Part shown: piece by piece, positions 4,311-47,088 of the stretch
Layout of the letters: every line of letters starts with the position of its first letter
Position numbering within the stretch: the stretch's first letter is position 1
DNA from: Candidatus Omnitrophota bacterium
GTDB lineage: Bacteria > Omnitrophota > Gorgyraeia > Zapsychrales > JAKLDJ01
Direction of reading: 5' to 3'
Assembly: GCA_022703585.1 (NCBI GenBank)
Contig: JAKLDJ010000005.1
Location: 5,353-69,352 of the forward strand
Length of the DNA: 64,000 bases
Notes under the pieces: model-generated
Told to the model about the DNA's origin: nothing
What the model saw: the letters and a program-made list of their open reading frames with translations, nothing else
The model's database searches: none
Translations under genes and position numbers: made by a program

Positions 4311-5000
4311 AGGGACGCTCTTTTGGCGCTATTGAAGTCTGTCCCATCCTTCAGATACTGGGGACAGACTTCCGATCAACCGAAAGAGCGTCCCTGATCC
4401 CAATGAGCCCTGGAACATCCAGCGAATTTAAAAGCTCGTCATAAACACCCGATACTCTCAGTCGATAACTACTCCATTGATAATCTGATGCTGATTGAAC
4501 AATTTCGGCCCGTACGGGATTCTGCTCGATATACTCAATGCAACCCAGAAAATAGTCCTCCGAACTTATTGCCATACTTTTGAAACGTCCCTGCCATAGA
4601 TGGCCGCAGGTATGATGTCGGGCATTAAAATATAATGCGTAAGACTGATCCAATCCTTGCATAAATTTTGGTAGATCCCTGACGACACATGGTTTCACCA
4701 ATAAATGGACATGATTTGGCATCAGACAATAGCCAAATAGAAGAACTTTAAACTTCATCTTATATCTTCTCAGCAATCTCAGGTAAACCTCATAATCTTG
4801 GCTAACCTTAAATACATTTTGTTTCTGGTTACCCCTGGACATAATGTGATAGAAATTATTTTCGGGTAAAAATCGTGCAGTCCTCGGCATAACTTCTCCT
4901 CTGTATTCTTCAGGGACGCTCTTTTGGCGCTATTGAAGCCTGTCCCATCCTTCAGATACTAGGGACAGACTTCTGTTCAGCATAAAGAACGTCCCTGATA
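4311..5000 (-). mobile_element. IS200/IS605-like REP-RAYT unit: tyrosine transposase flanked by two ~88 bp near-identical structured repeats
   Basis: Near-identical direct repeats at 4311-4398 and 4912-5000 (AGGGACGCTCTTTTGGCGCTATTGAAG..CTGTCCCATCCTTCAGATACT.GGGACAGACTTC...AAGA.CGTCCCTGAT). Each contains nested palindromes (GGGACGCTCTTT/AAAGAGCGTCCC and GTCTGTCCC/GGGACAGAC). They bracket a Y1-HUH transposase gene. Confidence 0.7.
4351..4890 (-). CDS. REP-associated tyrosine transposase (RAYT) / IS200-family TnpA-like Y1 HUH transposase
   Basis: 179 aa. It has the HUH motif (NHVHLLV) and a downstream conserved Tyr region (QWSSYR), typical of the IS200/RAYT family. The 3' end of the ORF lies inside the flanking repeat. 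Confidence 0.7.
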   Translation of the reverse strand: MPRTARFLPENNFYHIMSRGNQKQNVFKVSQDYEVYLRLLRRYKMKFKVLLFGYCLMPNHVHLLVKPCVVRDLPKFMQGLDQSYALYFNARHHTCGHLWQGRFKSMAISSEDYFLGCIEYIEQNPVRAEIVQSASDYQWSSYRLRVSGVYDELLNSLDVPGLIGIRDALSVDRKSVPSI

Positions 5001-5633: not shown

Positions 5634-5713
5634 CGCTCCCTACCTCCTTTTTTGGTTGGCCTGCAGCTATTAGTAAATTATTAGTCGCCTGGCACCAGTG
5701 ACCAGTCGCCAGT

Positions 5714-6067
5714 TTATAGCTTTTTAATAAGACTCAAAATCATCCGCATCTCATAAATTACAGAATCCACTAATGGTCTGCTATTAACTTCGGACAAATA
5801 CTGCCGTTTTCCTGAAAGAATAATCTGGGTTTCAAGCTCAGCGCAGGATCCCAAAGAAATATACAGAAACTGTGTATACTCCTTCGTGTGATGACGCACA
5901 AAACCCTCGGCAATATTCGACGGGATTGAAACGGCTGCCCGACGCATTTGAGTCGTTAAGATAAATAGCTCGCTTTTGGGATATTGATCAGTAAAAAAAT
6001 AGATTTTTTCAGCAATCTCTATTCCTTTTTGCCAAATTTTTAAATCTTTGTAATCCTTAACTTTCAT
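5714..6067 (-). CDS. Four-helix-bundle protein, Avd-like / 23S rRNA intervening-sequence protein family (TIGR02436/PF05635-like)
   Basis: 117 aa. It carries the family core LKIWQKGIEIAEKIY...QMRRAAVSIPSNIAEGF...FLYISLGSCAELETQII. It is flanked by inverted repeats at 5681-5713 and 6088-6117. Confidence 0.8.
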   Translation of the reverse strand: MKVKDYKDLKIWQKGIEIAEKIYFFTDQYPKSELFILTTQMRRAAVSIPSNIAEGFVRHHTKEYTQFLYISLGSCAELETQIILSGKRQYLSEVNSRPLVDSVIYEMRMILSLIKKL

Positions 6068-6084
6068 TGTTTTCCTTCCATTTT

Positions 6085-7680
6085 TTACTGGTCACTGGCA
6101 ACCGGCGACTGGCGACACACCTCAATTCTTCTCGAAAACTCCCCACCCGTAAACCCGTCAATCAAAGCCGTTAACTCCTCAACCCGCATTTCTTTATCCT
6201 CGCGCTCCTGGGTCCCAAGAGAGAGATCCCGGACAAGATCGGCCTGCAACCGGCGCCGTTCAAAATAAAGCCTCGTCACTTGGTCTAAAATGTCTTCCCT
6301 TAACTCAACCATCAATTTCGAGCGCGAATCAATAGACGTTTGTTCAGAGCTCCAAACCAATTCCGCTATATCCCATTTAAGGTTAACTCCCCAATCCTGA
6401 GGCCCAATAGCCGTCCGGTCATAAGTCGATCCCAGCGCCGTCGTCACCGTCTTATCAAAATCCAAACTGACCTCGGGCATCAAGGCCCTGGCCTGCGCCA
6501 ATCGCCTCCAATTCCGTATCTTATCGGCACCCACTTCCGCATACGCGATTGCCATTCTGTGAACCTCGCGAATAGACGGTTCATCCGCCCAATACGCATT
6601 CGCCGGACTTGTCATTGCCGCTACGCCGTCGGGCAACGTTTTCTTCGGCTTCATTAGAAAAATCCCTTTATCTGTCGCGGCATATAAATGATTTTCTTCA
6701 TCACACGCCAAAAAATTGACCTTACTTGTTTCCATCCCTCCATAGATATGTTCCCATCCGTCCTCCGTTTCTATGAAGACTCCTTTTTGCGTGCCCAAAA
6801 CAATCTCGCCTTCCCTTAAAACCGTCAAGGATGTCGCGCTTTCAAGCGGCAGGCCGTCGACATCAATCTCTTCCCAGAATTTTCCTTGGTTGGAGCTGTA
6901 AAAAATCCCTTTTGTTGTCGCCACATACAACTCAGATTTCCTTTTATTGGTCGCAACCAGGGAGAGAATTTGCTTTTTATAGATTGAGGCATCTTCTCCT
7001 TCAGTCTCTTGGGTCTCGGCGCCATTGCCGTTAAGCTCGCCTCCCATAACGCTAAAAATCTCCAAAATTTCCTGGCTCTTCGGGTCTATCCGGAAAATTT
7101 TGTTTTCTGTCGCCGCGTAAATATACGTTCCATCTTCAGCTAAAAAGGCGACGGCTTTACTGTTTAAATCACCTTGGGCCCTGCTCCAAACCGGGCCGTC
7201 AATGGTTTTGTAAAAAAGACCCCCGGCTGTTGCCAGATAAACCGTGTTTTCATCCTCAATAACCCACAGACAGCGGCGTTCACGGCTATCATTGGAGAAC
7301 AATATTCTTTTCCATGCCCCGCCGTCATTCGTGCTTAGAAACAGACCGGAATCGGTCGCGGCATAAATGACAGAATCCCTGACCGGGCTCGCATAAAGAT
7401 AATTAACTCTGCGGGAAGCCCCAGATGCCTGCAGAAGCGCTTGCGCCACGCTTCCTTTATATGGAGATAAAACCCGGTACGCCGACTTTGTCGTGCCGAC
7501 AAACATGCCCTGAGGGCGGCCCTTCGGGCCGCCCTCAGGCGCAAACGCCACACACGTCACCTCCGGCTCGGCAATACCCGACCCGATCTTTTCCCATTCA
7601 TAATGACTCCAGGCGAAATTCAGATTCAACACCCCCAGCACCAAAATCATCCCTACTTTAAGACCGCCATACTTATCCAT
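6085..7680 (-). CDS. Secreted BNR/Ycf48-like beta-propeller repeat protein with C-terminal coiled-coil
   Basis: 531 aa with an N-terminal signal-like segment. It has repeated motifs YAATDSGLFLSTNDGGAW, YAATENKIF and YAATDKGIF, typical of BNR/Ycf48-like repeats. Confidence 0.55.
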   Translation of the reverse strand: MDKYGGLKVGMILVLGVLNLNFAWSHYEWEKIGSGIAEPEVTCVAFAPEGGPKGRPQGMFVGTTKSAYRVLSPYKGSVAQALLQASGASRRVNYLYASPVRDSVIYAATDSGLFLSTNDGGAWKRILFSNDSRERRCLWVIEDENTVYLATAGGLFYKTIDGPVWSRAQGDLNSKAVAFLAEDGTYIYAATENKIFRIDPKSQEILEIFSVMGGELNGNGAETQETEGEDASIYKKQILSLVATNKRKSELYVATTKGIFYSSNQGKFWEEIDVDGLPLESATSLTVLREGEIVLGTQKGVFIETEDGWEHIYGGMETSKVNFLACDEENHLYAATDKGIFLMKPKKTLPDGVAAMTSPANAYWADEPSIREVHRMAIAYAEVGADKIRNWRRLAQARALMPEVSLDFDKTVTTALGSTYDRTAIGPQDWGVNLKWDIAELVWSSEQTSIDSRSKLMVELREDILDQVTRLYFERRRLQADLVRDLSLGTQEREDKEMRVEELTALIDGFTGGEFSRRIEVCRQSPVASDQ

Positions 7681-7951
7681 GTTCTTCGATCTCCCGGTAT
7701 ATTTTGTCCACGTTGATATTTTTTAAAGCTGTTGTAACCGCGTTTTTCATCTGCGGATTGTGCGCGCCGATAATCGAAACATACTTCTCAAGATATTCCA
7801 GCATCGCCTCCAACCCCAGGCGCAACCGCATTTCCATTAAAACACATAAGACCGTATACACCGCGACAATACTGTCTCTTGAAAAAATAAGATTTTCCGG
7901 CCTCGGCATATGCTCACTTCCAAAGTTCTTGTCGCAATTATTTTCTTCCAT
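7673..7951 (-). CDS. Hypothetical protein
   Basis: 92 aa ORF co-directional with the downstream gene. I recognise no motif. Confidence 0.3.
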   Translation of the reverse strand: MEENNCDKNFGSEHMPRPENLIFSRDSIVAVYTVLCVLMEMRLRLGLEAMLEYLEKYVSIIGAHNPQMKNAVTTALKNINVDKIYREIEEHG

Positions 7952-8761: not shown

Positions 8762-8811
8762 GCAAATTTAAGGGTAGTACGGGTTGGAGGGGGCATTAAG
8801 GGTTAGTAGGG

Positions 8812-9225
8812 GTGAGACGGAACAACCATTGGCTCGGAGACACAACGGAAAAAATGGAAAAAGAACCGGGATATAAAAATCTCATCGTTTGGAAGAATAC
8901 ACGCACATTAAGAGGTCTCATTTACCAGATGTGCAAAGGGTTTCCTCAGGCAGAGATGAGACGTTCAAGCCAGATGAGAGATTCGGCGAGATCGGTCAAA
9001 CAGAATATTCAAGAAGGTTACGTAAAATCACTGCCTTCCTACATCAATCATCTCAATATTGCCATGGGTTCGCTGTCGGAATTGCGAGGCGACATCGACG
9101 ATTGTCTTGAAGATAGGTTGATTACCAAAGAAAATTTCTTGTCTATTAATGAATTGGCCGGAAAGACAGAATATCTTTTAAAACGGTTGATTCAATCATT
9201 GATTCGAAAGAGGGATAGTCGATGA
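8812..9225 (+). CDS. Four-helix-bundle protein, Avd-like / 23S rRNA IVS protein family; true start probably the internal Met near 8854
   Basis: It carries NLIVWKNTRTLRGLIYQMCKGFPQAEMRRSSQMRDSARSVKQNIQEGY...SLSELRG, matching the family pattern. The first ~14 codons of the annotated ORF lie inside the upstream inverted repeat. Confidence 0.7.
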   Translation: MRRNNHWLGDTTEKMEKEPGYKNLIVWKNTRTLRGLIYQMCKGFPQAEMRRSSQMRDSARSVKQNIQEGYVKSLPSYINHLNIAMGSLSELRGDIDDCLEDRLITKENFLSINELAGKTEYLLKRLIQSLIRKRDSR

Positions 9226-9271
9226 ATTTCAAACCCATACTAACCCCTACTATCCCATTTTACCCCCTTCT

Positions 9272-9311
9272 GCCCCCTTCTGCCCCCTTCTGCCCCCTTC
9301 TAACCCCTAAA
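9272..9311. repeat. Tandem decamer CCCCCTTCTG x4 inside the right inverted-repeat arm of the Avd cassette
   Basis: Direct reading: cccccttctgcccccttctgcccccttctgcccccttct. Confidence 0.9.
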
Positions 9312-9346
9312 CTTTTATCTCTCAAACCCATAGTCAAGGAGCCAGT

Positions 9347-9789: not shown

Positions 9790-9990
9790 TAAATCACTTA
9801 TATAGAAACATAAGGTTATTGTGTTTATTGGGTTCCTTGAGTTTATAGGGTTCCCGTCTAAAACATTTTACTGCGCGTAATAACTCAATGAACCCAACCC
9901 AATGAGTTCAAATAACCCAAAGAACTCAATAAACCCAATAGCCCAATAAACTCAATGGACTCAACAAACCCAACAACCATCCAAAGACCA
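9790..9990. repeat. Cluster of short dispersed repeats of the AACCCAATAAAC/TCAAT family, both orientations
   Basis: GTTTATTGGGTT ... GTTTATAGGGTT ... AACCCAACCCAATGAGTTCAAATAACCCAAAGAACTCAATAAACCCAATAGCCCAATAAACTCAATGGACTCAACAAACCCAACAACC. The same family occurs at 600-660 and 42340-42460. Confidence 0.8.
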
Positions 9991-11675
9991 TGATTCACTT
10001 AAATCCGTTTGCGATCGCAAACCTTATTATCGCTATTACATATTTTCCGCTTTTCATACTTATTGCCATCAAAGGGAAAACAAGAATAGCAAGAGTCTAT
10101 TCCCTTCACATTCTCGCGATATGCCTCTGGGGTATCGGCGCTTTCCTGGGTGGCATAAACCAGAACCAAGCAATTTCGATTAATCTATGGAAATTTGCAT
10201 ATTCCGCAGTAATCTTTATACCCATTTTCTTTCTTCACTCTGTATTGATTTTAACAAAAAGAAATTCGAGATTCTTGATTACGCTAATATATATTCAAGC
10301 CATTTACTTTCTTTGGGAAGCCCAGAGCGGTGGCATGTTTTCTTCTGTAAGACTTGTTTTTAATTCATTCTATTACGTTAATGGAAAAATCATCTATCTT
10401 TACTCATTTATCTCTTGGGTAGTTACAGTTTCATTCGCTCACCTGCTACTTATTCAATATTATAAAACTAGCTATCCGGGACAAAAAGAACAAATTGCCT
10501 CTTTAATACTCGCAATCATAGGTTTCTTAGGCGGTGCCATGAACTTCTTGCCAGGCTTCAATATAAATATCTACCCACACGGGAATCTTCTTGTGCCCAT
10601 CCATTCGATTATCGTTACCTACGCAATTCTAAAACACCAATTATTAGATATCATCGTCGTAATCAAGAAAAGTCTAATTTATTCAATTCTAATCACCTCG
10701 ATTACGGTCACTTACTTAATTTTAGTTATTTTATCAGAGAGACTACTCCAGGGAACCATCGGCTATCAATCACTCCTCGTAAGTGTTGGCATCGCTTTCT
10801 TAATCGGACTTGTATTTAGTCCCCTGCGAAATAAAATTCAATATTTCGTTGATAAATACTTCTTTAAAGGCACCCAAGCCCAAATCGCAGAGGAAAATGA
10901 ACGCCTGCGACAAGAAGTTGCCCAGGCTGAGAAGCTTAAAACCGTCGCCACCTTGGCCAGCGGCATGGCTCACGAAATAAAAAATCCGCTGACGGCGATA
11001 AAAACTTTCGTCGAATACCTGCCCGAGCGAAAAGACAACCCCGAATTTCTCGATAAATTCACACGGATCGTCGGAGCAGAAGTTGACAGGATTGACGGCC
11101 TGGTTCACCAATTGCTGGAATTTGCCAAGCCCTCTCCTCTTGCCTTAAAAGAAACTAATATCCATCAATTAATAGACGAAACCTTAAGCCTTCTTAATAA
11201 TCAACTTGTTCAGCATAAAATTGATTTAATCCGAGACTATAATGCCGACCGCGACCAGACATTAAATATTGACCCCAATCAAATACGTCAGGCGCTTTTG
11301 AATATTTTTCTAAATGCGATCGAGGCGATGAAATACGGCGGGACGCTTCGCGTGCAGACTGAAGACTACAGACTAAAGACTAAAGACCAAAGCTCGCAGA
11401 AGTCTTTGGTCTCTGGTCTTCAGTCTGGGGTCCATAAAGGCTTCTTAAAGATAACAATTTCCGACACCGGCTCCGGCATACACCCTAAGGACCTGCCTCA
11501 CGTTTTCGATCCCTTCTTCTCAAAAAAAGATCACGGCACCGGCTTAGGGTTAGCCATTACGCACGGGATTATTCAGGAGCATGGGGGGAAAATTAAAGTT
11601 GAGAGTGAGTTGGGGAAAGGAACAGAAGCTATTCTAGAGTTGCCGATAATTGGCAGTGAAGAAAATAAGGGATAG
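9990..11675 (+). CDS. Sensor histidine kinase with N-terminal 7TM sensor domain (HisKA_7TM-like), HisKA and HATPase_c
   Basis: 561 aa. Multiple TM helices carry the motif YAILKHQLLDI shared with the two other kinases. H-box MAHEIKNPLTAI; N/G boxes NIFLNAIEAM, ISDTGSGI, GTGLGL. Confidence 0.85.
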   Translation: MIHLNPFAIANLIIAITYFPLFILIAIKGKTRIARVYSLHILAICLWGIGAFLGGINQNQAISINLWKFAYSAVIFIPIFFLHSVLILTKRNSRFLITLIYIQAIYFLWEAQSGGMFSSVRLVFNSFYYVNGKIIYLYSFISWVVTVSFAHLLLIQYYKTSYPGQKEQIASLILAIIGFLGGAMNFLPGFNINIYPHGNLLVPIHSIIVTYAILKHQLLDIIVVIKKSLIYSILITSITVTYLILVILSERLLQGTIGYQSLLVSVGIAFLIGLVFSPLRNKIQYFVDKYFFKGTQAQIAEENERLRQEVAQAEKLKTVATLASGMAHEIKNPLTAIKTFVEYLPERKDNPEFLDKFTRIVGAEVDRIDGLVHQLLEFAKPSPLALKETNIHQLIDETLSLLNNQLVQHKIDLIRDYNADRDQTLNIDPNQIRQALLNIFLNAIEAMKYGGTLRVQTEDYRLKTKDQSSQKSLVSGLQSGVHKGFLKITISDTGSGIHPKDLPHVFDPFFSKKDHGTGLGLAITHGIIQEHGGKIKVESELGKGTEAILELPIIGSEENKG

Positions 11676-11760
11676 CAGGGGCTAGTAGGGGGCAGTACGG
11701 GATAGTAGGGGTTTAAGAAATCCCTTCCTAACCCCTCCTATCCCTTTCTACCCCTTCCCA
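11676..11760. repeat. Cargo-less inverted-repeat pair related to the 8762-9260 Avd-cassette ends
   Basis: GCTAGTAGGGGGCAGTACGGGATAGTAGGGGTT ... AACCCCTCCTATCCC. The arms are adjacent with no gene between them. The sequence resembles GGGTAGTACGGG..GGGTTAGTAGGGG at 8772-8816. Confidence 0.6.
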
Positions 11761-11782
11761 CCCCTTTGATAACAATACTCAC

Positions 11783-12961
11783 TTAAATCCTCCCCGCCTC
11801 ACGCAACTCCACAATCGCCCTTACAGCAAGCGGATTAAACTGTAGCCCCGAATTTCTTTTAATCTCTTCCATCGCCACTTCCTTCGGTAACGCCGCCCGG
11901 TAAGGCCGATCGGTGGTCATGGCATCAAAGGTATCCGCGACCGCGATAATGGCGGCGGCAATCGGAATATCCTCAGCTTTTAGCCCATACGGATAACCCT
12001 TACCGTCGTAGCGCTCGTGATGATATCTGACACCGTCTAGGGCATCCTTAAACTCAGCGATATGCTTTAATATCTCAAGGCCCCGTTGGGGGTGTTGCTT
12101 CATAATAGTGTATTCCTCATCGGTTAATTTCCCCGCCTTCCTCAAGATGATCTCGGGGATACCGATTTTTCCGATATCATGCAAAAGGGCGGCATTCTGC
12201 AGGTTCTCAAAAAACTTATGCGGAAAACGGGCGGTCTGATTGGCATTCATCTGATGGGCGATTGCTAAAGAAAATTGTGTCACCCGCTCAGTATGGCCCC
12301 GGGTATATTCGTCTTTGGCTTCAATAGCCGAGGTAAGCGCTAAGGTTGTCGAAATAAACAGCTGACGGTTACGCTCGGCCTCTTTCTTTAAGTCCTCAAT
12401 AAGCTGCGCGTTTTTAATCGCCATTGCCGTATCCGAGGCCAGTGCCGAGAAAAAGTCCAACTCCTCCTGATCAAAACCCGTTCCGTCACTTTTTTCTCCC
12501 AGCAGCAAAAGCGCCAAAAGCGTATCCCTAAAATACGCCGGCACGCAGGCAACAGCATTAAACATATGCATCTGCTCGTTAACCTTGTGCAAAAGATCCC
12601 GAACATCCTCGCCGTTACTAATAATGCTCTCCTGCCAAATCATGGTCTGGATATCCGTCGACATCAGCGCTGAATGGTTGGGCGGTAAATTCTTATATTT
12701 CACATGGGAAAATAACTTGATCAACGGACTGTCTTTGCCAAAACGCGCAAAACCCGCAGGGATCTTAACCCCCATCTCTCCGTGCGAAATCGAGACAACA
12801 TAGCCGTCCTTATGAGGGTCATAGAGAATCATCGCCGCGTGCTTAATCTGGACTTTACGCACAATCATGCGGACGATAAGCTTGATCAGCGTCTTGGGGT
12901 CATGAATAAGGATCATGCCCTTGCTGGCGCCTTCGAGTTCTTTTTTGTAGTTCAGTTGCAT
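11783..12961 (-). CDS. GAF domain-containing HD-GYP phosphodiesterase (cyclic-di-GMP)
   Basis: 392 aa. The C-terminal HD-GYP signatures are LLHDIGKIGIP and HHERYDGKGYPYGL. The N-terminal half is GAF-like. Confidence 0.8.
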   Translation of the reverse strand: MQLNYKKELEGASKGMILIHDPKTLIKLIVRMIVRKVQIKHAAMILYDPHKDGYVVSISHGEMGVKIPAGFARFGKDSPLIKLFSHVKYKNLPPNHSALMSTDIQTMIWQESIISNGEDVRDLLHKVNEQMHMFNAVACVPAYFRDTLLALLLLGEKSDGTGFDQEELDFFSALASDTAMAIKNAQLIEDLKKEAERNRQLFISTTLALTSAIEAKDEYTRGHTERVTQFSLAIAHQMNANQTARFPHKFFENLQNAALLHDIGKIGIPEIILRKAGKLTDEEYTIMKQHPQRGLEILKHIAEFKDALDGVRYHHERYDGKGYPYGLKAEDIPIAAAIIAVADTFDAMTTDRPYRAALPKEVAMEEIKRNSGLQFNPLAVRAIVELREAGRI

Positions 12962-13022
12962 GGAATTTTACCGTTAATCAACACAGATTAACACAAATTG
13001 AAACAGATTTTCACAGATAAAA

Positions 13023-13415
13023 TCACTCGCATCGATCATAGATGCGCCGTCTGATATCTATAGATTCATTGCCGAAGTTAACCAAATAGCCTAGCTTGTA
13101 CTCTGTGCCGCTTAAGTAATAGAAAAGCTGTTTTTCAAATACTTTCGGAAGATTCAGCAAGGATTTAATTTCAACAATAATTTTGTCATCGATGACAAAA
13201 TCCGGCTCATAAACACCTACATGTTTCCCGTGAAATCGGATTTTAATTCTCGGCTTATCAACATATTTTATCCCACGTTCTTCAAAGCATATTTTGAGAG
13301 ATTCGTGATAAATTTGCTCCTTATGTGCCGGACCGAGCTCGTTATAAACATCATAAAAACACCCAACCAGCTTATACGACAATTCCTTATGCGGAAAATG
13401 CTCTACTTTTGCCAT
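13023..13415 (-). CDS. GxxExxY family protein (PD-(D/E)XK-like, TIGR04256-like)
   Basis: 130 aa. It has the GxxExxY signature YNELGPAHKEQIYHESL followed by EPDFVIDDKIIVEIK (a PD-ExK-like DxxxxEIK). It is flanked by long inverted repeats at 12973-13018 and 13420-13464. Confidence 0.65.
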   Translation of the reverse strand: MAKVEHFPHKELSYKLVGCFYDVYNELGPAHKEQIYHESLKICFEERGIKYVDKPRIKIRFHGKHVGVYEPDFVIDDKIIVEIKSLLNLPKVFEKQLFYYLSGTEYKLGYLVNFGNESIDIRRRIYDRCE

Positions 13416-13492
13416 AGTAATTATCTGCGAAAATCTGTTTAGATCTGTGAATATCTGTGTTAGTTAACGCTTCAATTTAAAACTTAACACAC

Positions 13493-13852: not shown

Positions 13853-13882
13853 GTTTATTCCTTAGGGTATAGGGGTTAGGGT

Positions 13883-14266
13883 TTAGCGTTTAGAGTCCAT
13901 CTTGTTCTGTAATCGCAAAATCATGGCACTCAGCATTTTCAGTATTTCTGTAAGTAAATTATCAATCCGTTGATAATCTGCAGCAACAATAAATTCCAGA
14001 CGCTTTGCTATAATCAATTGCGTCTCAAGCTCAGAGGCAGAACCTTTTGCGATATATAAAAATTGAATATATTCTTTTCGATGATTGCGCTGATAGCCTT
14101 CCGCAATATTTGAAGATATCGCAACAGCTGAACGACGCATTTGCGAAACAAGACCGTATAGTTCATCATGTGGCAATTGCCGCGTTAGCCTATACACATC
14201 TAAGACTAATTCGACCGATTTCTGCCATACAATTAAATCTTTATGCGACTGAATTTTCTCGCTCAT
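13883..14266 (-). CDS. Four-helix-bundle protein, Avd-like / 23S rRNA IVS protein family
   Basis: 127 aa. It carries LIVWQKSVELVLDVYRLTRQLPHDELYGLVSQMRRSAVAISSNIAEGYQRNHRKEYIQFLYIAKGSASELETQLIIA. It is flanked by inverted repeats at 13861-13882 and 14286-14314. Confidence 0.85.
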   Translation of the reverse strand: MSEKIQSHKDLIVWQKSVELVLDVYRLTRQLPHDELYGLVSQMRRSAVAISSNIAEGYQRNHRKEYIQFLYIAKGSASELETQLIIAKRLEFIVAADYQRIDNLLTEILKMLSAMILRLQNKMDSKR

Positions 14267-14317
14267 TACCCTTAATTCCCTGATCTCTTCTGTCCCCTAA
14301 ACCCTATACCCTATCCC

Positions 14318-16492
14318 CTAACTGACTATCGGCAATATAATCGTAATCAACGTCCCGGTCATATACTCCGATGACATCGCTACTTTTCCTTTGTGGTTCT
14401 CTTCGATGAGTTTCTGGATCACGTAAAGCCCTAAACCCGTTCCTTTTTTGCTGGAAAGTTTGGTGGTAAAAAAGGGCGTGAATATTTTGTCCTGATCATT
14501 GTCTTTTACTCCGATGCCATTGTCGAGGACACTAATCTGCAATATCCCCTCTTTCTTCTCGGCCGCAATTCTTAAGGTGGGCTTATAATTGGGTTCATTC
14601 TTTTCATTCTTGCGCTGCATAAGGGCATCATGGGCATTATCAATAAGGTTAAAGAAGACTTCCTGCAGCTGGGTAAAATTGCCATGGATTTTGGGAAGCA
14701 TCTGGGCGGAATAATCTTTGACAATAGTAATCTGTTCCAGCTTAACCTTATATTGGGCCATTTCGATGGAAGCGTTGACAAGTTGATCAAAATCAACCGG
14801 GCCAAAACCGGCCTCACCTTTGCGAGTGTACTTTAAAAGCCCCTGGACAACTTCTCCGCCCTGCTTAACATTATCCTGGATTCTTACCAAAGCGCGCTGC
14901 ACCTCGTCGATAAGCTCTTTGGCTTCAGGAGAAACAACTGTCCCTCCTTTTAGCTTAATAGAGTCCAACGCATCGCCGGCAATAAACCCGAGCGCATGCA
15001 GGCGATTGTTGATCTGATGCGAAAGTCCGTCGGCCATGGTACCAATGGTAGCCATTTTTTCGGCTTGAAAAAGCTGCTCCTGGGTGCGCTTGACGTCCTC
15101 GTAAAACTGGGCATTCTCGATTGCCAACGCCGCCTGATTAGCCAGAATGGAGAAAACGGACAGATCGTCTTCGCTATATAATTTACCCGATAGTTTGCGG
15201 CCGAGCACAACAATAGCCAGAAGTTTTTGCTCGATAAAGCTTGGAACCACAACCGCGGCGTCAAGTTCGCGCAAAGCAGATTCCACCAGAATCAGTTCCT
15301 GGTCCCGATAGTCCTGGGTGCGTTGCTTGATTTCTTCATAGACAATAGGCTCTTTCACCTTAAAGAGATACCTGGTCAAAGGCGAGGTGTACTCAACGGC
15401 GCCTTTACTCTTTGGCTTGCCTCTGTTTCGGGACGCCTCAATAAAATATTTCTTTTCAGAATCATCATAAAGATAAATCGAACTGTGCTCCAGGTGAACG
15501 GTGCGGGTCACGATATAGACAATCAAATTCATCAATTTCTTTAAATCTTTAACCCTGCCCATACCCAAAGAAGCCTGGCGCAAGGTTGCCTGGTAACGCT
15601 TTTGCTCCTGGAGAAGCCGGTTTTCTGCTTTTTTCTGAATGTACAAATAAATAAACGGCCCGGCGGTGGCGAGAACGGTGGAGCTGACGAGGGGAACAAT
15701 CCACCACTTTTCTCCAATTAAAGCTGCTAACCATTGTTGGCAACCGAAAGCTAGAGCAAAGGGAATGCCGAGGACAACACCGTAAACTGCGACAAAAATG
15801 CCCGTACGAGTAATGGCAACTGAAATATCTAGAAGTCGATATTTAATAATCGCATATGTGAAAACAAAAACAACACAAATCATATTAATATATCCAAAGG
15901 GATATATTTCAAAACCATATTTACCAAAATAATCCACACTGGCTCCCGAGCCAATTAAATAAGCGATAAAAACATATTTAAGCTGATTCCGTTTCAGCAA
16001 AGTTAAGGTTTTATTGTTTTTTAAAGTAAAGAAAACAAGAAGGCTGGCATAAGAATATACTCCGAAGAAATAAATTAAGAAGGGATGGTAAAGAATTGCT
16101 GCCTGGGGATAATACCCCCAAAAGTACTTATGTACATGAGAAAAAAACAAGTCAGTCCTGCTTAAAATTAAGAATATTCCTGCCAAAACATAAAAAAAGG
16201 TCAAAGTTTTTGGTTTCTTTAAGTTTAAAAGACTTATTGCAATCTGGAAGTTAGCGATTGGGATAAAAATAATTCCGAAATAACTAGTCCTGGCCCAGAA
16301 AATGGCTTCATCAGGATTACGAGCCGAATAACATGCGGAATATGAGTAATGCCATATAGCAATGCATAGACATAAGCCCGCGAGCGAGAAATTTGAGAAT
16401 GATCTTTTAATTCTAAATGAAACAAAGAAACCTAAGAATAGCGATAGAGTCGCAGCAACAGAAGGCAATAAATAATATATTGAATTAACCAT
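14318..16492 (-). CDS. Sensor histidine kinase: 7TM sensor domain + GAF + HisKA + HATPase_c
   Basis: 724 aa. The 7TM N-terminus has YAIIKYRLLDI. The central part is GAF-like. H-box LSHQINNRL; N/G boxes NLIDNAHDA, DNGIGV, GTGLGL. Confidence 0.85.
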   Translation of the reverse strand: MVNSIYYLLPSVAATLSLFLGFFVSFRIKRSFSNFSLAGLCLCIAIWHYSYSACYSARNPDEAIFWARTSYFGIIFIPIANFQIAISLLNLKKPKTLTFFYVLAGIFLILSRTDLFFSHVHKYFWGYYPQAAILYHPFLIYFFGVYSYASLLVFFTLKNNKTLTLLKRNQLKYVFIAYLIGSGASVDYFGKYGFEIYPFGYINMICVVFVFTYAIIKYRLLDISVAITRTGIFVAVYGVVLGIPFALAFGCQQWLAALIGEKWWIVPLVSSTVLATAGPFIYLYIQKKAENRLLQEQKRYQATLRQASLGMGRVKDLKKLMNLIVYIVTRTVHLEHSSIYLYDDSEKKYFIEASRNRGKPKSKGAVEYTSPLTRYLFKVKEPIVYEEIKQRTQDYRDQELILVESALRELDAAVVVPSFIEQKLLAIVVLGRKLSGKLYSEDDLSVFSILANQAALAIENAQFYEDVKRTQEQLFQAEKMATIGTMADGLSHQINNRLHALGFIAGDALDSIKLKGGTVVSPEAKELIDEVQRALVRIQDNVKQGGEVVQGLLKYTRKGEAGFGPVDFDQLVNASIEMAQYKVKLEQITIVKDYSAQMLPKIHGNFTQLQEVFFNLIDNAHDALMQRKNEKNEPNYKPTLRIAAEKKEGILQISVLDNGIGVKDNDQDKIFTPFFTTKLSSKKGTGLGLYVIQKLIEENHKGKVAMSSEYMTGTLITIILPIVS

Positions 16493-18542: not shown

Positions 18543-20234
18543 TCAGTTCTTTGGCAACTCAATGGTAAACTTCGTCCCTTCACCCAATTTACTTTCCGCC
18601 GCTATTGTTCCACCGTGTAATTTAATAATCTCCTGCGTAATACTAAGTCCTAAGCCGATACCGTCTCGTTTGGTCGTATGGAATGGCTCAAAAAGTTTCT
18701 TGAGGTTTTCGGGAGAAATGCCGCAGCCATTGTCAGCAATTATTATCCTGACATAATCTCTGCGGACTTGAGACTCAAGACCAAAGACTAAAGACTTTTG
18801 GTCTGCGCTCGTTGGTTTTTGGTCTTTAGTCTCTGGTCTCTGGTCTGTGGTCTGAACAAAAAGCTCTCCACCCTCACCCATCGCCTGGATAGCATTAAGG
18901 AACAAATTTAAGAAAACCTGCTTGAGCTGTTCTTCATCTCCCTGAATAAGACCGTCAGGATCCTGATAGTCCTTTTTAATACTGATTTTCTTAAGAGCGA
19001 AGCTGTCCTGCAGCAATGTCAGGGTTGAGTCAATCAAAGCACAGACGTTAACCGGCTTTAAATCAACCTGCCGGGGCTTGGCGAGATTTAATAGTTGATT
19101 AATGACCTTCTCTATCCGTTCCACTTCTTTGGGGATTAACGTGTTAAATTTCTGCCTGAATTCTGCATCATGGTATTTTTGCGGTAGATAATCGAGATGT
19201 GTCTTAATAGCAGTTAAAGGATTCCTGATTTCATGGACAATTGAGCTGGCCAGTTGTCCCACATAGGCGAGTTTCTCTTTGTGAAAGAGCTCCTGCTGAA
19301 GCCGACACCGTTCCTGGTCAAGGCTTTCTAGGGTGCCCTGAAAAAACCGCTTATCTAGTATGTGCTGGATCCAATCTCGCAATGGATAAAGCAATGCTGC
19401 AATAATAAACACGGCAAATAAATTAGAAAAAAACGATTGATAGCCAACCATGCCTTGAAATAATTTTCCTACGCTAACAACAAAGATGAGATAACCTGCT
19501 GTAATAATCGCTAGCAACGCCGAATAAACCAATCCTTTCTTAATAATAATGTTAATATCCATCAGCTGATGCTGCATTATTGCATAAGTTATAATCAAAG
19601 GATATACTGCAAGAAAGAAATACGGGTAGGGATACACCTCAATCCTAAACGCAGAGGGAAAAAAACTATGCGGACCAATCCATCCAATTATCGATGCAAT
19701 AATAAAGTATTTCATTTGCATCCGCCTTATTCCTGAGCTATGTCTGAAATCAACAAGCATGAGAAATAACGTGTACAAAAGTAGAATCCAGTAAAAACCT
19801 ATATAAAAAACTAAAAAGATCGGACTTTTATACTTAGGCCAATCGAAACAGTAGAATTGCCCAAAAACTAATCTTAAGTCTCCGAAAAATAGCTCCCTTT
19901 TCGTAAGAATAATCGCAAAGAAAAAGAATGCCAGAGCATAAACTAAAGCAATTAAATTCTTTTTCTTAAGATTGATGAATTTGCAAATAAAATGAAAAAA
20001 TATAGCCGGACAAAAAACTCCACCGATATATGCAAATTGCCACCAGAAGAAAGCTATTTCCTTAGATTGCGTTGTAGAAAATTTGTATGCTCCAAATCCC
20101 CAAATTGCACTGCCTATGCTCATTAAAATCCATGTTTTTGTTAGTTTTCGATCGCCACTCTTAAAAAGCATTAACACTGCCATCATTAAATTAGCAATAA
20201 AAATCAATATAGACGAAATCGCAAAGGCGTTCAT
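18543..20234 (-). CDS. Sensor histidine kinase with 7TM sensor domain; likely starts at Met 20234, overlapping the fabF stop as ATGA
   Basis: 7TM region with YAIMQHQLMDI; H-box VHEIRNPLTAI; NLFLNAIQAM, DNGCGI, GIGLGL. The ORF track start at 20258 would overlap fabF by 28 nt. The internal ATG at 20232-20234 overlaps the fabF TGA at 20231-20233. Confidence 0.8.
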   Translation of the reverse strand: MNAFAISSILIFIANLMMAVLMLFKSGDRKLTKTWILMSIGSAIWGFGAYKFSTTQSKEIAFFWWQFAYIGGVFCPAIFFHFICKFINLKKKNLIALVYALAFFFFAIILTKRELFFGDLRLVFGQFYCFDWPKYKSPIFLVFYIGFYWILLLYTLFLMLVDFRHSSGIRRMQMKYFIIASIIGWIGPHSFFPSAFRIEVYPYPYFFLAVYPLIITYAIMQHQLMDINIIIKKGLVYSALLAIITAGYLIFVVSVGKLFQGMVGYQSFFSNLFAVFIIAALLYPLRDWIQHILDKRFFQGTLESLDQERCRLQQELFHKEKLAYVGQLASSIVHEIRNPLTAIKTHLDYLPQKYHDAEFRQKFNTLIPKEVERIEKVINQLLNLAKPRQVDLKPVNVCALIDSTLTLLQDSFALKKISIKKDYQDPDGLIQGDEEQLKQVFLNLFLNAIQAMGEGGELFVQTTDQRPETKDQKPTSADQKSLVFGLESQVRRDYVRIIIADNGCGISPENLKKLFEPFHTTKRDGIGLGLSITQEIIKLHGGTIAAESKLGEGTKFTIELPKN

Positions 20235-21457: not shown

Positions 21458-21505
21458 AATATTGGGTTACGGTTAAGGTTACGATGCCGGTATCGTATAA
21501 AAAGG

Positions 21506-21925
21506 TTACGTTATTCGTCGCCCTTTCAATTTAAAATTATTCCATGCCTCAGATAGATTATATAATTGTCGTCCTGTTTTATCGTAAACATCAATAAGTT
21601 TCACACAAAGCTCTTTATTAATATACTGAGAATATATGTCCCGACAATGACTCAAGGAAACCACCAATTCATTGCACTCACCCATGGCATCATCGAGATA
21701 TTTCTGGAATCCTTGCCGTTGATGCTTTTTCGCATAACCTTCGGCAATCAATCTCGGGACAGATTTGCAACTGCGGCTCAGCTGGTCTTTTAAGTCATAT
21801 TTCTCTGATTCCGGTAATTTAGGAACTATCTGTGTCATGACGGTAATCGACAATTCATAGGCATTCCGATAAACCTCTAAATCATTAAAGCTTGCAATTG
21901 GCTTCTTTTTAAGAATCTCTTCCAT
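21506..21925 (-). CDS. Four-helix-bundle protein, Avd-like / 23S rRNA IVS protein family, inserted between fabZ and fabF
   Basis: 139 aa. It carries LEVYRNAYELSITVMTQIVPKLPESEKYDLKDQLSRSCKSVPRLIAEGYAKKHQRQGFQKYLDDAMGECNEL. It is flanked by GGGTTACGGTTAAGGTTACG (21463-21484) and CGTAACCTTAACC... (21931 onward). Confidence 0.75.
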   Translation of the reverse strand: MEEILKKKPIASFNDLEVYRNAYELSITVMTQIVPKLPESEKYDLKDQLSRSCKSVPRLIAEGYAKKHQRQGFQKYLDDAMGECNELVVSLSHCRDIYSQYINKELCVKLIDVYDKTGRQLYNLSEAWNNFKLKGRRIT

Positions 21926-21930
21926 GAAAC

Positions 21931-22109
21931 CGTAACCTTAACCTTTTTTAACGATACTTTGCAAACTTAACCCTAACCTTAACCTCGATTGGCTATTGCC
22001 TGCCGATAGGCAGGGTTATTGTCTCTTGGTGCTTGGCGATTATTCCCTGCGAAATTTTAATCGTAACCCTAACCTTTTTTAACGATACTTTGCAAACTTA
22101 ACCCTAACC
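21931..22109. repeat. Duplicated cassette end: ~50 bp direct repeat (21931-21987 and 22062-22109) with a hairpin (CCTGCC-GATA-GGCAGG) between
   Basis: CGTAACC(T/C)TAACCTTTTTTAACGATACTTTGCAAACTTAACCCTAACCTT occurs twice with a ~131 bp period. It has a telomere-like CCCTAA/TTAGGG content. Confidence 0.85.
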
Positions 22110-22121
22110 TTCTAAAACAAC

Positions 22122-23666: not shown

Positions 23667-23745
23667 ATTTGAGCTTTCAGTCGTCAGCCATCAGCCTTCA
23701 GCATCTGTCAGCTGATAGCTGACAGCGGATAGCTGACAGCTCTTC
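23667..23745. repeat. Palindromic intergenic repeat of the GCTTTCAGC/GCTGAAAGC/CAGCTGATAGCTG family
   Basis: GAGCTTTCAGTCGTCAGCCATCAGCCTTCAGCATCTGTCAGCTGATAGCTGACAGCGGATAGCTGACAGC. Confidence 0.8.
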
Positions 23746-24740: not shown

Positions 24741-24751
24741 TTTTAACTCCT

Positions 24752-24822
24752 TTTAGCTCTCAGCTTTCAGCTATCGGCTTTCAGCAGCTTTCAGCTGATA
24801 GCTGACGACTGAAAGCTGACGA
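24752..24822. repeat. Palindromic intergenic repeat of the GCTTTCAGC/GCTGAAAGC family
   Basis: AGCTCTCAGCTTTCAGCTATCGGCTTTCAGCAGCTTTCAGCTGATAGCTGACGACTGAAAGCTGACGAC. Confidence 0.8.
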
Positions 24823-25029
24823 CTACCCAGGTCTCTTCTTCTTTTCCTTCGGGGCCGCAATTTCTACAACGAGTTTACCCTTATAATGCCCGCAATAGGC
24901 GCAGACACGATGAGGAAGAATCGCTTTCTTGCACTGAGGGCAAATCGACATGGCCGGCACCGCGATCTTCCAGTGCGTGCGGCGCTTGCGCCCTCTGCTT
25001 CTTGAATGTTGCCGTTTTGGTAAAGGCAT
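24823..25029 (-). CDS. rpmF: 50S ribosomal protein L32
   Basis: 68 aa. The N-terminus is PKRQHSRSRGRKRRTHWK and the CxxC...CxxC zinc ribbon is CPQCKK...CAYCGHYKGK. Confidence 0.85.
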   Translation of the reverse strand: MPLPKRQHSRSRGRKRRTHWKIAVPAMSICPQCKKAILPHRVCAYCGHYKGKLVVEIAAPKEKKKRPG

Positions 25030-26648: not shown

Positions 26649-26742
26649 TTATGATCCTTTTTTGTCGCTAGTCGCTCGTCTCTTGTCGCTCGAACATACT
26701 ATCTTAAAGCGAGTCACGAGTGACGAGAACCAGGTGACCGCT

Positions 26743-33364: not shown

Positions 33365-36337
<2,973 letters not shown>

Positions 36338-36565: not shown

Positions 36566-36568
36566 TTC

Positions 36569-36648
36569 TAGCTTTCAGTCGTCAGTCATCAGCTTTCAGC
36601 ATTACTGCTCATCTATGCTGATAGCTGAAGGCTGATGGCTGATAGCAT
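36569..36648. repeat. Palindromic GCTTTCAGC/GCTGAAAGC-family repeat inserted in the tRNA-Ala/tRNA-Ile spacer of the rRNA operon
   Basis: TAGCTTTCAGTCGTCAGTCATCAGCTTTCAGCATTACTGCTCATCTATGCTGATAGCTGAAGGCTGATGGCTGATAGC. Confidence 0.8.
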
Positions 36649-36652
36649 AAAA

Positions 36653-39836: not shown

Positions 39837-39880
39837 AATTTAGTGTCTCGTCTCTCGTCGCTCGTGGTTCGTTTATGAAT

Positions 39881-42339: not shown

Positions 42340-42460
42340 TAAGTATCGGGTTTTTTGGGTTATTGAGTTCATTGAGTTCATTGAGTTGGGCCGTTCAACC
42401 CTAAACCCAAAAACCCTAGAAACCCAATAAACCCAAAGAACCCAACAAGCTCAATAAACC
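42340..42460. repeat. Short dispersed repeats of the AACCCAATAAAC/TCAAT family, both orientations
   Basis: GGGTTATTGAGTTCATTGAGTTCATTGAGTTGGG ... AACCCTAAACCCAAAAACCCTAGAAACCCAATAAACCCAAAGAACCCAACAAGCTCAATAAACCC. Confidence 0.8.
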
Positions 42461-43234
42461 CTATTTCGCCATTTTCTGATCATAATCAATAACCGGCTTT
42501 GTCCAAGGCGTTTGCTGATTAATCACCGCCAATTCCAGCGGACAAGAATTAGCCGGCACGGAAAGCGCGAACATCACCATATCGGCAACCGTCTCGGGAG
42601 ACATCAAACGTTCTTTTTGTTCCTGGGTAATATTCGCCAAGTGGTCAGTTAAGTCGCTGTCGACCACGCCGGGAAGGATCGAGGTAATCTTGATCCCCCG
42701 GTCGCGCATTTCCCAGAAAAGCCCTTTTAAAAATGCCCTCAATCCCACCTTAAGCGAACTATAGGTTAAAAATGTTTTCGGCAGCGGATCACATAACGTC
42801 GAACCAGAAACCATATTAATAATCGCCCCTTCTTTTCGCTCGATCATGTGGTTGATAACCAAACGAATCAGGCGCACATAGCCCAAATAATTGGTGTGGG
42901 CGAGTTTTTCGATATCCTCCAGCGGCTGTTTTTCAAACGGGTATTGACTGGAAACACCGGCATTATTAATAAGGATATCAATATTCTTAAATTCCTTGAT
43001 CGCCGTATCAACCAGATTCTTTAAATCATCTAACTTGCTGACATCGGTCGGAACGCCGATGACTTTAACTTTATACTTTGAAGAAAGTTCTTTTGCGGTT
43101 TCATCCAAAGTTTCTTTGGTGCGCGCCGCCAAAACCAGATTAACCCCGGCCTGTGCCAAGCGTACCGCCACCGCCTTGCCTATCCCGCGACTGGCGCCGG
43201 TAATAATTGCGCATTTTCCTTTGAGATTTGACAT
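42461..43234 (-). CDS. SDR family oxidoreductase (FabG-like ketoreductase)
   Basis: 257 aa; it has TGASRGIGKAVAV, NNAG and YSSLKVGLRAF (YxxxK). Confidence 0.8.
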   Translation of the reverse strand: MSNLKGKCAIITGASRGIGKAVAVRLAQAGVNLVLAARTKETLDETAKELSSKYKVKVIGVPTDVSKLDDLKNLVDTAIKEFKNIDILINNAGVSSQYPFEKQPLEDIEKLAHTNYLGYVRLIRLVINHMIERKEGAIINMVSGSTLCDPLPKTFLTYSSLKVGLRAFLKGLFWEMRDRGIKITSILPGVVDSDLTDHLANITQEQKERLMSPETVADMVMFALSVPANSCPLELAVINQQTPWTKPVIDYDQKMAK

Positions 43235-44396: not shown

Positions 44397-44483
44397 TGAA
44401 AGCTATCAGTCGTCAGTCTTCAGCTTTCAGCAACTATCAGCTGAAGGCTGCTGAAAGCTGACGGCTGATAGCTGAGAGCCAAG
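44393..44483. repeat. Palindromic intergenic repeat of the GCTTTCAGC/GCTGAAAGC family
   Basis: TGAAAGCTATCAGTCGTCAGTCTTCAGCTTTCAGCAACTATCAGCTGAAGGCTGCTGAAAGCTGACGGCTGATAGCTGAGAGC. Confidence 0.8.
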
Positions 44484-44487
44484 GAAG

Positions 44488-46766: not shown

Positions 46767-46851
46767 TTTGAGCTTTCAGCTTTCAGCTCTCAGCTTTCAG
46801 CAGCTGTCAGCTAATGCTTTTGCTGGCTGCTGAAGGCTGCTGACTGACAGC
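46767..46851. repeat. Palindromic intergenic repeat of the GCTTTCAGC/GCTGAAAGC family
   Basis: GAGCTTTCAGCTTTCAGCTCTCAGCTTTCAGCAGCTGTCAGCTAATGCTTTTGCTGGCTGCTGAAGGCTGCTGACTGACAGC. Confidence 0.8.
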
Positions 46852-47088
46852 TTAATTTACCCCTTTCGCTTTTAAAATGCTAATAATCTCATTAAACGTA
46901 TGCGTCTTTTTAACCTCGTTGTCGGCCAGCGGGATACCAAACTCTTTCTTGAGCCCGACGGAAATCTCCACCATTTCAGTCGAGTCAATCCCCAGCGCCT
47001 GGTCGAGCTTGACGTCCGGCTTTATCTCATTGGGGTTAACATCCAGGACTTTCTTAAAAATGCCTTTTGCTCTATCTTCAACACTCAT
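46852..47088 (-). CDS. Acyl carrier protein
   Basis: 78 aa; LGIDSTEMVE is the phosphopantetheine-attachment motif (DS(L/T)). Confidence 0.8.
   Translation of the reverse strand: MSVEDRAKGIFKKVLDVNPNEIKPDVKLDQALGIDSTEMVEISVGLKKEFGIPLADNEVKKTHTFNEIISILKAKGVN

Follow-up and report, generated by a model that had tools for sequence, protein, structure and literature searches.

MITEs, Correia/NEMIS elements, REP/BIME sequences with their RAYT and Rickettsia palindromic elements (RPEs) are short, non-coding sequences with terminal inverted repeats that are related to a longer gene-bearing element and lie at gene ends. Intervening sequences (IVSs) are selfish elements whose terminal inverted repeats form a stem around an S23p/IVP open reading frame (ORF). 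They are excised by RNase III, ORF-less forms exist, and the true mobility of IVS-type elements has been an open question since 1993 (PMC4990558). The IVP has been described as an uncharacterised protein spread over insertions in rRNA (10.1101/2024.02.27.582315), and it has also been located between cas genes in cas loci (PMC3936711). In heterocystous cyanobacteria, the 7-bp repeats known as STRR (short tandemly repeated repetitive) can form hairpins between operon genes, with a function that is not known (PMC2670836). Going by its title, as cited in PMC2858038, a further study places STRR inside the gene for RNase P RNA too (Vioque 1997, PMC146911). Within the literature searched, we found no description of cognate tandem-repeat arms on IVP or GxxExxY genes, or of gene-less derivatives outside rRNA.

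We analysed a 64-kb stretch of an Omnitrophota genome (64,000 nt, hereafter the window; identical to the ENA metagenome contig ERZ795054 NODE_619). In this window, a hairpin of about 104 nt, the solo hairpin, lies between a histidine kinase gene and a convergent HD-GYP gene, and a full, gene-bearing cassette lies 2.4 kb upstream of it. An earlier note on this DNA had read the two as a mobile element and its MITE-like remnant, or as an excision footprint. In our analysis, the solo hairpin is likely, with a probability of roughly 0.7, to be the gene-less, non-autonomous variant of a family of palindromic cassettes and to have been inserted between the kinase and HD-GYP genes. It would spread or be maintained as selfish DNA by whatever machinery moves the full cassettes, and it would either have been copied in already gene-less or have lost its gene afterwards.

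The window cassette shares its cargo family (PF05635/TIGR02436) with 23S rRNA IVSs that carry an S23p/IVP ORF (Leptospira, Coxiella burnetii). Cassette and IVS have a common architecture of 400–550 nt, in which terminal inverted repeats form a long stem around an ORF of ~120 aa; ORF-less IVSs (Salmonella) can be likened to the short gene-less hairpins. IVSs and the window cassettes are both considered selfish and subject to horizontal transfer, and no function is known for the ORF (PMC4990558; 10.1101/2024.02.27.582315). However, the copies in the window are found between, and twice inside, protein-coding genes and not in rRNA helices. The cassette arms consist of tandem decamers with conserved tips. 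RNase III processing is a feature of the IVSs. The 23S rRNA gene of the window (33370–36337) contained no ORF-bearing IVS and was no more than slightly expanded (about +15 nt close to model position 580). Given its location between protein-coding genes, we rejected the solo hairpin as a 23S rRNA intervening sequence.

STRR hairpins resemble the solo hairpin in being intergenic, in lying between operon genes and in having arms of tandem short units. But STRR units are heptamers from cyanobacteria, while the solo unit is a decamer (10 nt) in an Omnitrophota host, and we did not assign the solo hairpin to STRR on these two grounds. Units of 7 and 9 nt do occur in other hairpins of the window. Unlike the cassettes, STRR has no gene or cognate cargo described in the literature searched.

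The solo hairpin and the cassette arms

The solo hairpin spans positions 11666–11769 and is imperfect, with arms of 4–5 G-rich decamers (GGGGnTAGTA) and their complements (Table 1). The arm strings quoted in the earlier note were all found where it had placed them: GCTAGTAGGGGGCAGTACGG at 11681–11700, GGGATAGTAGGGGTT at 11699–11713 and AACCCCTCCTATCCC at 11730–11744 in the solo hairpin, and GGGTAGTACGGG at 8772–8783, GGGTTAGTAGGGG at 8800–8812 and CTAACCCCTACTATCCC at 9240–9256 in the cassette. As complements, GGGATAGTAGGGGTT and AACCCCTCCTATCCC agree at 14 of 15 positions. The hairpin is indeed present within 11676–11760, the extent first given for it, but it is larger, reaching from ~11666 to ~11769 and starting before the kinase stop. 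An inverted-repeat search paired 11679–11713 with 11730–11764 at 77% complementarity and also detected shifted registers (77–84% overall). Both Tandem Repeats Finder and our own inverted-repeat-plus-periodicity detector returned a unit period of 10 nt. As had been claimed, no gene lies between the arms: the loop measures ~16 nt, and the ORF list holds no ORF of at least 50 aa there. The left tip of the hairpin, TAAGGGATAG, is retained, and the right tip is degenerate (CCCACCCCTTTGA).

Table 1. Coordinates of hairpins, cassettes and selected genes in the window
Feature	Position	Strand	Remarks
RAYT-like Y1 transposase gene	4351-4890		PF01797 53.7 bits; NF047646 73 bits, just under cut-off 80
Cassette, IVP cargo	5683-6116		
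Full cassette, left arm	8767..8813	+	TTTAAGGGTAGTACGGGTTGGAGGGGGCATTAAGGGTTAGTAGGGGT; same family as solo hairpin
Full cassette, cargo	8854..9225	+	123-aa four-helix-bundle protein, PF05635 23S_rRNA_IVP / TIGR02436
Full cassette, right arm	9231..9312	+	ends in conserved tip CTAACCCCTAAAC
Cargo-less hairpin	9814-9978		in response regulator-kinase spacer
7TM histidine kinase gene	9990..11675	+	Pfam; ~8 extra C-terminal residues IGSEENKG after conserved ...ELPx; stop inside solo hairpin
Solo hairpin, left arm	11666..11713	+	~4.5 G-rich decamers TAAGGGATAG CAGGGGCTAG TAGGGGGCAG TACGGGATAG TAGGGGTT; collinear with cassette left arms
Solo hairpin, apex/loop	11714..11721, to ~11729 in alternative register	.	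TAAGAAAT; folds; ORF-free
Solo hairpin, right arm	11722..11769	+	C-rich decamers CCCTTCCTAA CCCCTCCTAT CCCTTTCTAC CCCTTCCCAC CCCTTTGA, complementary to left arm
GAF/HD-GYP gene, convergent	11783..12961	-	Pfam; stop in most relatives overlaps kinase stop by 4 nt, often in CTTTAAAG
Cassette, GxxExxY / PDDEXK_3 (TIGR04256) cargo	12964-13477		
Cassette, IVP cargo	13862-14321		
Cassette, IVP cargo	21458-21960		arms GGTTAAGGTTAC / GTAACCTTAACC
Cargo-less hairpins	23667-23744; 24741-24830; 26649-26742		
Cargo-less heptamer-armed hairpin	36566-36652		CAGCTTT/CAGTCGT units; between tRNA-Ala and tRNA-Ile, rRNA operon
Cargo-less hairpins	42357-42461; 44397-44487; 46767-46855		

The resemblance of these arms to those of the cassette, placed at 8762–9260 in the earlier note, was borne out by a blastn-short search of 11664–11770 against the rest of the window. 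The ten best matches all fell within 8781–8813 or 9231–9309. The best of them, at 9231–9279, covered 49 nt with 78% identity (44.1 bits, E 2.7e-7), versus 20.6–26.9 bits for the best match in each of 30 shuffled windows, and the left arm matched 8781–8813 with 82% identity over 33 nt. In a multiple alignment, the solo arms were collinear over 4–5 decamers with those of four cassettes and one other solo hairpin, the outer tip TAAGGG(A/T)TAG included. Identity to these five elements amounted to 56–74% for the left arm and 65–71% for the right arm. Since the alignment is collinear and the scores lie far above those of the shuffled windows, the likeness reflects homology and not shared G/T-richness, the alternative that had been named for it. 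Thus, the comparison supports placing the solo hairpin, as a gene-less copy, in one repeat family with the arms of the 8767–9312 cassette. At only 74–78% arm identity to this local cassette, the event would be old and the solo hairpin not a recent derivative.

We defined the G-rich family by inverted arms of 4–5 decamers GGGGnTAGnA and by the tips (T)TTAAGGGTTAG ... CTAACCC(C/T)TAAA(C), i.e. TTTAAGGGTTAG...CTAACCCTTAAAC. The solo hairpin has such arms and the left tip but no PF05635 gene in its loop, which makes it the gene-less form. Within the 64 kb of the window, the family comprises one solo and one full copy; more copies are found in other genomes. The arms of the full cassette differ in unit number, with 4 on the left and ~8 on the right. 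The right arm has three perfect tandem decamers of CTGCCCCCTT at 9270–9299 that nothing in the left arm matches, pointing to recent replication slippage on one side.

The earlier note had taken the cargo of this cassette for an Avd protein, and here our result differs. The cargo is of the IVS type (TIGR02436/PF05635) and did not match the Avd model NF033474, while the other IVPs of the window scored far below the cut-off of that model. No reverse transcriptase (RT) domain was found among the Pfam matches for the 21 genes called near the locus (window −10..21.7 kb). On this evidence we rejected an identity as a DGR Avd cassette.

The kinase/HD-GYP junction in relatives

A syntenic gene cluster was found in ~30 metagenome contigs, in which cupin/HTH, response regulator (RR) and kinase genes are followed by convergent HD-GYP, response regulator and kinase genes. 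The kinase/HD-GYP spacer measured at most 33 nt in 22 of the 28 syntenic metagenome loci, versus 107 nt in the window. In nine of these 22 loci the two stops share 4 nt, frequently inside the palindrome CTTTAAAG; the kinase, compared at the C-terminus across 28 homologues, ends in ...ELPx there. The closest available relative by HD-GYP identity (L060, 73%) has a spacer of 3 nt. A contig scan with the HD-GYP protein returned mostly unrelated HD-GYP domains; only Ca. Aceula lacicola (L049), the nearest named relative found, was informative. Since kinase and HD-GYP genes abut or overlap their stops in 22 of the 28 relatives, the comparison shows the solo hairpin to be an insertion between convergent genes with ancestrally abutting or overlapping stops.

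In the window, the solo hairpin occupies almost the entire gap of 107 nt. The TAG stop of the kinase (11673–11675) and its last two codons lie within the first decamer of the hairpin. Compared with the homologues, this shows that the insertion has remodelled the 3' end of the kinase gene, with the first decamer supplying the present stop codon. An identical kinase is present in 18 assemblies. That the first arm unit gives the kinase its stop, and that the solo hairpin is only one of many tandem-repeat-armed hairpins in the window, goes beyond the earlier note. As most relatives have no spacer at all, the presence of the hairpin is best explained by selfish spread and not by a need of the host.

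Six relatives have the same site filled in other ways. L085 has a hairpin built of 7-nt units (AGACTAA family), L084 one with GGGACTG units and L082 one without periodicity; L086 has a remnant akin to the hairpins that accompany GIY-YIG, L062 a small hairpin rich in G, and L061 a 663-nt cassette in which heptamer arms enclose an IVP gene. With occupants this varied, the junction has been hit repeatedly. The small hairpin of L062 looks by eye like a member of the G-rich family, but it aligns poorly (33–45%) and was rejected as a family homologue. At 7767–8431 of L061, the kinase stop context and the left arm (ATCCGGTAA...GATCAGGGACTGGGTGA) are duplicated after the cargo, and a complete solo hairpin follows. 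It looks as if a solo hairpin had already been present and a cargo segment had either entered it by recombination or been inserted directly upstream.

The L061 cassette also bears on a different origin of the window hairpin, in which a full cassette once stood at this exact site and lost its gene by deletion between the arms, leaving an excision or deletion footprint. Full cassettes can evidently land at this intergenic site, the solo hairpin keeps 4–5 units per arm as full cassettes do, and its left arm is nearest to the resident cassette. However, the arms in L061 belong to a different family (GGGATCA/GGGACTG heptamers), and neither a cargo gene nor its ribosome-binding region has left a recognisable trace in the 16-nt loop. 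No feature separates a footprint from the insertion of an already gene-less copy. We consider a footprint unlikely.

Arms and cargo in other genomes and other cassettes

Homologues of the cassette cargo with 77%, 72% and 69% amino acid identity were detected in three other Omnitrophota genomes, each in an unrelated neighbourhood. In L146 the gene lies between two T2SSF genes, in L141 between genes for a pseudouridine synthase (PF00849) and a quinolinate phosphoribosyltransferase (PF02749/PF01729), and in L154 it has TauE and PEPCK genes as neighbours. Each time it is enclosed by the same G-rich decamer arms with the conserved tips (G/A)TTTA(A)GGGTTAG ... CTAACCC(C/T)TAAAC. More distant homologues (59–66%; Margulisiibacteriota, WOR-3) have related purine-rich decamer arms. 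In a regular-expression scan of the 1.54 Mb of fetched loci, paired G-array/C-array structures were seen only at G-rich cassettes and solos. Because the same arms accompany orthologous cargo in unrelated neighbourhoods of three genomes, arms and gene travel together, and these comparisons support the full cassette behaving as a mobile unit.

In L146, a gene-less hairpin of the family lies ~60 nt downstream of the cassette, where it was miscalled as an 81-aa gene. Left arms of solo hairpins were nearest to the cassette of their own genome (74% in the window, 80% in L146, versus 56–70% to foreign cassettes). Judged from these alignments, the pattern of a full element with an empty copy is seen twice independently, in the window and in L146.

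No transposase or recombinase was found within the cassette, which encodes only the TIGR02436 protein. A comparison of seven element ends revealed no common direct repeat outside the tips and hence no target-site duplication. TTAA/TTTAA is present at the element tips, and empty kinase/HD-GYP sites often read CTTTAAAG. We rejected a TTAA target-site duplication, as the empty site between HD-GYP and response regulator genes (HD<RR) reads TGAcATG and has no TTAA; the TTAA therefore belongs to the element. A 34-nt repeat, GGGACGCTCTTTTGGCGCTATTGAAGnCTGTCCC, flanks the RAYT-like gene of the window (Table 1) with two copies in direct and one in inverted orientation (4311–4998). In the window this repeat occurs only at that gene (4312, 4913), and it is unrelated to the decamer arms. 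With a flanking repeat private to its own gene, the RAYT-like Y1 transposase was rejected as direct evidence for a mover of the G-rich elements, and REP/RAYT membership of the solo hairpin was set aside because the repeat and the arms are unrelated.

The reading as a mobile element with a MITE-like remnant therefore stands in part. Arms and cargo behave as a mobile unit (three genomes), the solo hairpin is an insertion, and the pattern recurs in L146; there is no transposase and no target-site duplication, and at 74–78% the relationship is not recent. Like a MITE, the solo hairpin is short (<~600 bp; here ~104 nt), non-coding and bounded by terminal inverted repeats (arms 77–84% complementary), but classical membership fails on two defining points, the target-site duplication and the transposase-encoding parent. 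In the strict sense, the solo hairpin is thus neither an IVS (it lies outside rRNA), nor STRR (it has decamers and belongs to another phylum), nor a MITE.

The solo hairpin is not alone in the window. An inverted-repeat and periodicity detector identified at least 10 hairpins with degenerate tandem-repeat arms (units of 7, 9 or 10 nt), most of them cargo-less, versus none in 10 shuffles; the 1.48 Mb of other loci contained only 12, five of them in L084. The hairpin at 36566–36652 lies in an rRNA operon spacer and is therefore part of the rRNA primary transcript. All four tabulated junctions of the gene cluster are expanded in the window (585, 107, 531 and 465 nt), and a fifth spacer, from response regulator to kinase, measures 280 nt. 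In most relatives the junctions span 10–70 nt or overlap. The intergenic cassettes of the RR/HK/HD-GYP genes are absent from relatives, Ca. Aceula lacicola included, and at the GxxExxY site the RR and HD-GYP genes are only 1–12 nt apart in relatives such as L049 and L064.

The GxxExxY cassette has decamer arms of the ACAGAT/CGCAGAT family. Homologues of its cargo with 74–78% identity are found in three unrelated Omnitrophota contexts (L155, L156, L157), again with CGCAGAT-type arms and with the tips TTGAACGCAGAT...ATCTGCGTTAAA. Going by these homologues, the rule of arms plus cargo holds for the GxxExxY cassette too. GIY-YIG is a third cargo type, found in relatives, and full and solo forms stand in the same relation here, with hairpins specific to this cargo (compare L063 with L086/L093). 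Inverted repeats of a separate kind, GTCATTGCGAGG...CGCAATGAC or GTCATTCCCGAA...TTCGGGGGTGAC, enclose the small GIY-YIG genes (L063 2690–3200, 9290–9720), and gene-less hairpins of the latter type stand at the same junctions in other relatives (L086 1901–1976; the HD<RR spacer of L093). One GIY-YIG element of L063 is nested inside G-rich arms (TAGGGATTAGGGG / CTAACCCCTAAAAC) at the site between cupin and RR genes (cupin>RR). There, the G-rich arms are associated with an IVP in the window, with the nested GIY-YIG and its inner inverted repeats in L063, and with another IVP with arms of its own in L061, where a remnant of the right G-rich arm is left. Such differing cargo suggests turnover or nesting in hairpin loops.

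We tentatively raise the possibility, which we rate as less than even, of an undescribed class of mobile palindromic cassettes, in which very small genes come with cognate tandem-repeat arms and encode one of three folds (the four-helix bundle of the IVS type, the GxxExxY PD-(D/E)XK nuclease or GIY-YIG). Each protein would recognise the repeat units of its own arms and bring about copying into junctions between genes, into hairpin loops and even into coding loops, and the gene-less hairpins would be non-autonomous satellites. If true, such a class would explain the origin of rRNA intervening sequences, the function of TIGR02436 and TIGR04256 and possibly STRR-type hairpins. IVS proteins (PF05635/TIGR02436), which have been described without a known function, and GxxExxY proteins (TIGR04256) are very abundant. 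A single hairpin is modest in itself. Yet the locus and its syntenic relatives provide clean filled and empty sites outside rRNA, derivatives with no gene, and insertions by which stop codons are rewritten or which lie in frame in the ATP-lid loop of a kinase, and they make the mobility and function of IVS/IVP testable. They also carry a warning for the annotation of Omnitrophota and other uncultured genomes, where such hairpins are miscalled as ORFs, as with the 81-aa 'gene' of L146.

The order of events could also be reversed. In that case the hairpin would be primary, an STRR-like structure grown by slippage and fold-back copying, the genes would be later guests in its loop, and the solo hairpin would be an unoccupied landing pad. 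The changing contents of the G-rich arms at the cupin>RR site fit this account, as do the slippage in one arm at 9270–9299, the excess of mostly cargo-less hairpins over shuffles and the existence of STRR hairpins of 7-bp repeats in cyanobacteria (PMC2670836). However, arms and cargo co-travel with conserved tips across unrelated loci of three genomes, and likewise in the GxxExxY family, which is hard to square with locally made arms. The recurrence of the same unit families in different genomes argues for copying and against de novo growth. We therefore judge a primary hairpin improbable and retain the reading as a gene-less form of a mobile cassette.

Several further structures were observed in the window. 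Two paralogous 7TM histidine kinases contain in-frame AGACTAA/TGGTCTC heptamer hairpins (11355–11432, 18765–18853). Both inserts share one position in the HATPase_c ATP-lid loop, where they lengthen the protein by ~26–30 residues. The shortest kinase homologues (L097, L066, L073) have no insert there, and others have different ones, including the peptide GVIASEAKQS in L093. RPEs likewise lie in frame inside genes, as these sibling hairpins do. After the IVP cassette at 21458–21960, a 37-nt segment, TTTTTTAACGATACTTTGCAAACTTAACCCTAACCTT, is duplicated (~21953, ~22070) around a GC-rich hairpin, which suggests the remains of a nested or tandem element at 21458–22121. Half-elements, i.e. tandem arrays of 9-nt or 7-nt units without a recognisable complementary arm, were found at 623–670, 39843–39867 and 55560–55603. 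The first of these lies within the stretch of a 2359-aa minus-strand gene (SpvB, TcdB_toxin_midN and RHS_repeat Pfam matches) called on the identical contig L001.

Folding and transcription of the solo hairpin

The solo hairpin folds on both strands, with −44.3 kcal/mol on the + strand (z −1.9 versus shuffles, which is marginal) and −53.3 kcal/mol on the − strand (z −3.0). A scan for Rho-independent terminators did not call it. There is no T-run after the + strand stem, where the sequence continues with TTTGATAAC; on the − strand, a U-rich stretch, UUAUUUUCU, follows ~11 nt past the stem. The hairpin is not a canonical Rho-independent terminator, and the ordinary T-run terminator that had been named as a competing explanation does not account for it. 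A locally evolved bidirectional terminator or insulator with a merely compositional likeness to the cassette is highly improbable and already largely refuted: it would fit the position exactly between two convergent stops, the stability of the fold in either strand (−44 and −53 kcal/mol) and the U-rich stretch, but neither the silent scan and missing T-run, nor the collinear cassette similarity far above shuffles, nor the overlapping stops without a hairpin in most relatives. A co-opted terminator role would be compatible with the gene-less cassette reading.

Under selection at the RNA level, G·U pairs should favour the transcribed strand, and we compared the better-folding strand with the direction of transcription. 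They agreed in 7 and disagreed in 8 of the 15 window hairpins, that is, there was no RNA-strand signal. In the family alignment, only 3 of 32 conserved pairs showed a compensatory change, and the covariation term was unfavourable. No Rfam family scored above threshold for the solo hairpin; weak sub-threshold matches resembling miRNA precursors correspond to a generic long hairpin.

Transcribed from either side, the solo hairpin would give each of the two convergent mRNAs a 3' end with a long, imperfect stem (~35–40 bp). In shape, such a stem resembles a substrate of RNase III or a hairpin that protects 3' ends, as in rRNA intervening sequences, and does not resemble a Rho-independent terminator. 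By analogy, the transcribed hairpin would most plausibly serve as an RNase III-type substrate or as a 3'-end protecting stem for both mRNAs, because IVSs have the same cargo family, the same design of a stem around an ORF, proven RNase III excision and ORF-less versions (PMC4990558).

The G-rich strand of the family arms also contains a canonical G-quadruplex motif, with five G3–5 tracts spaced 5–7 nt apart. Matches are located at 11669–11711 (+) and 11722–11764 (−) in the solo hairpin and at 8772–8812 and 9234–9307 in the full cassette. Quadruplex formation in these arms would compete with the hairpin.
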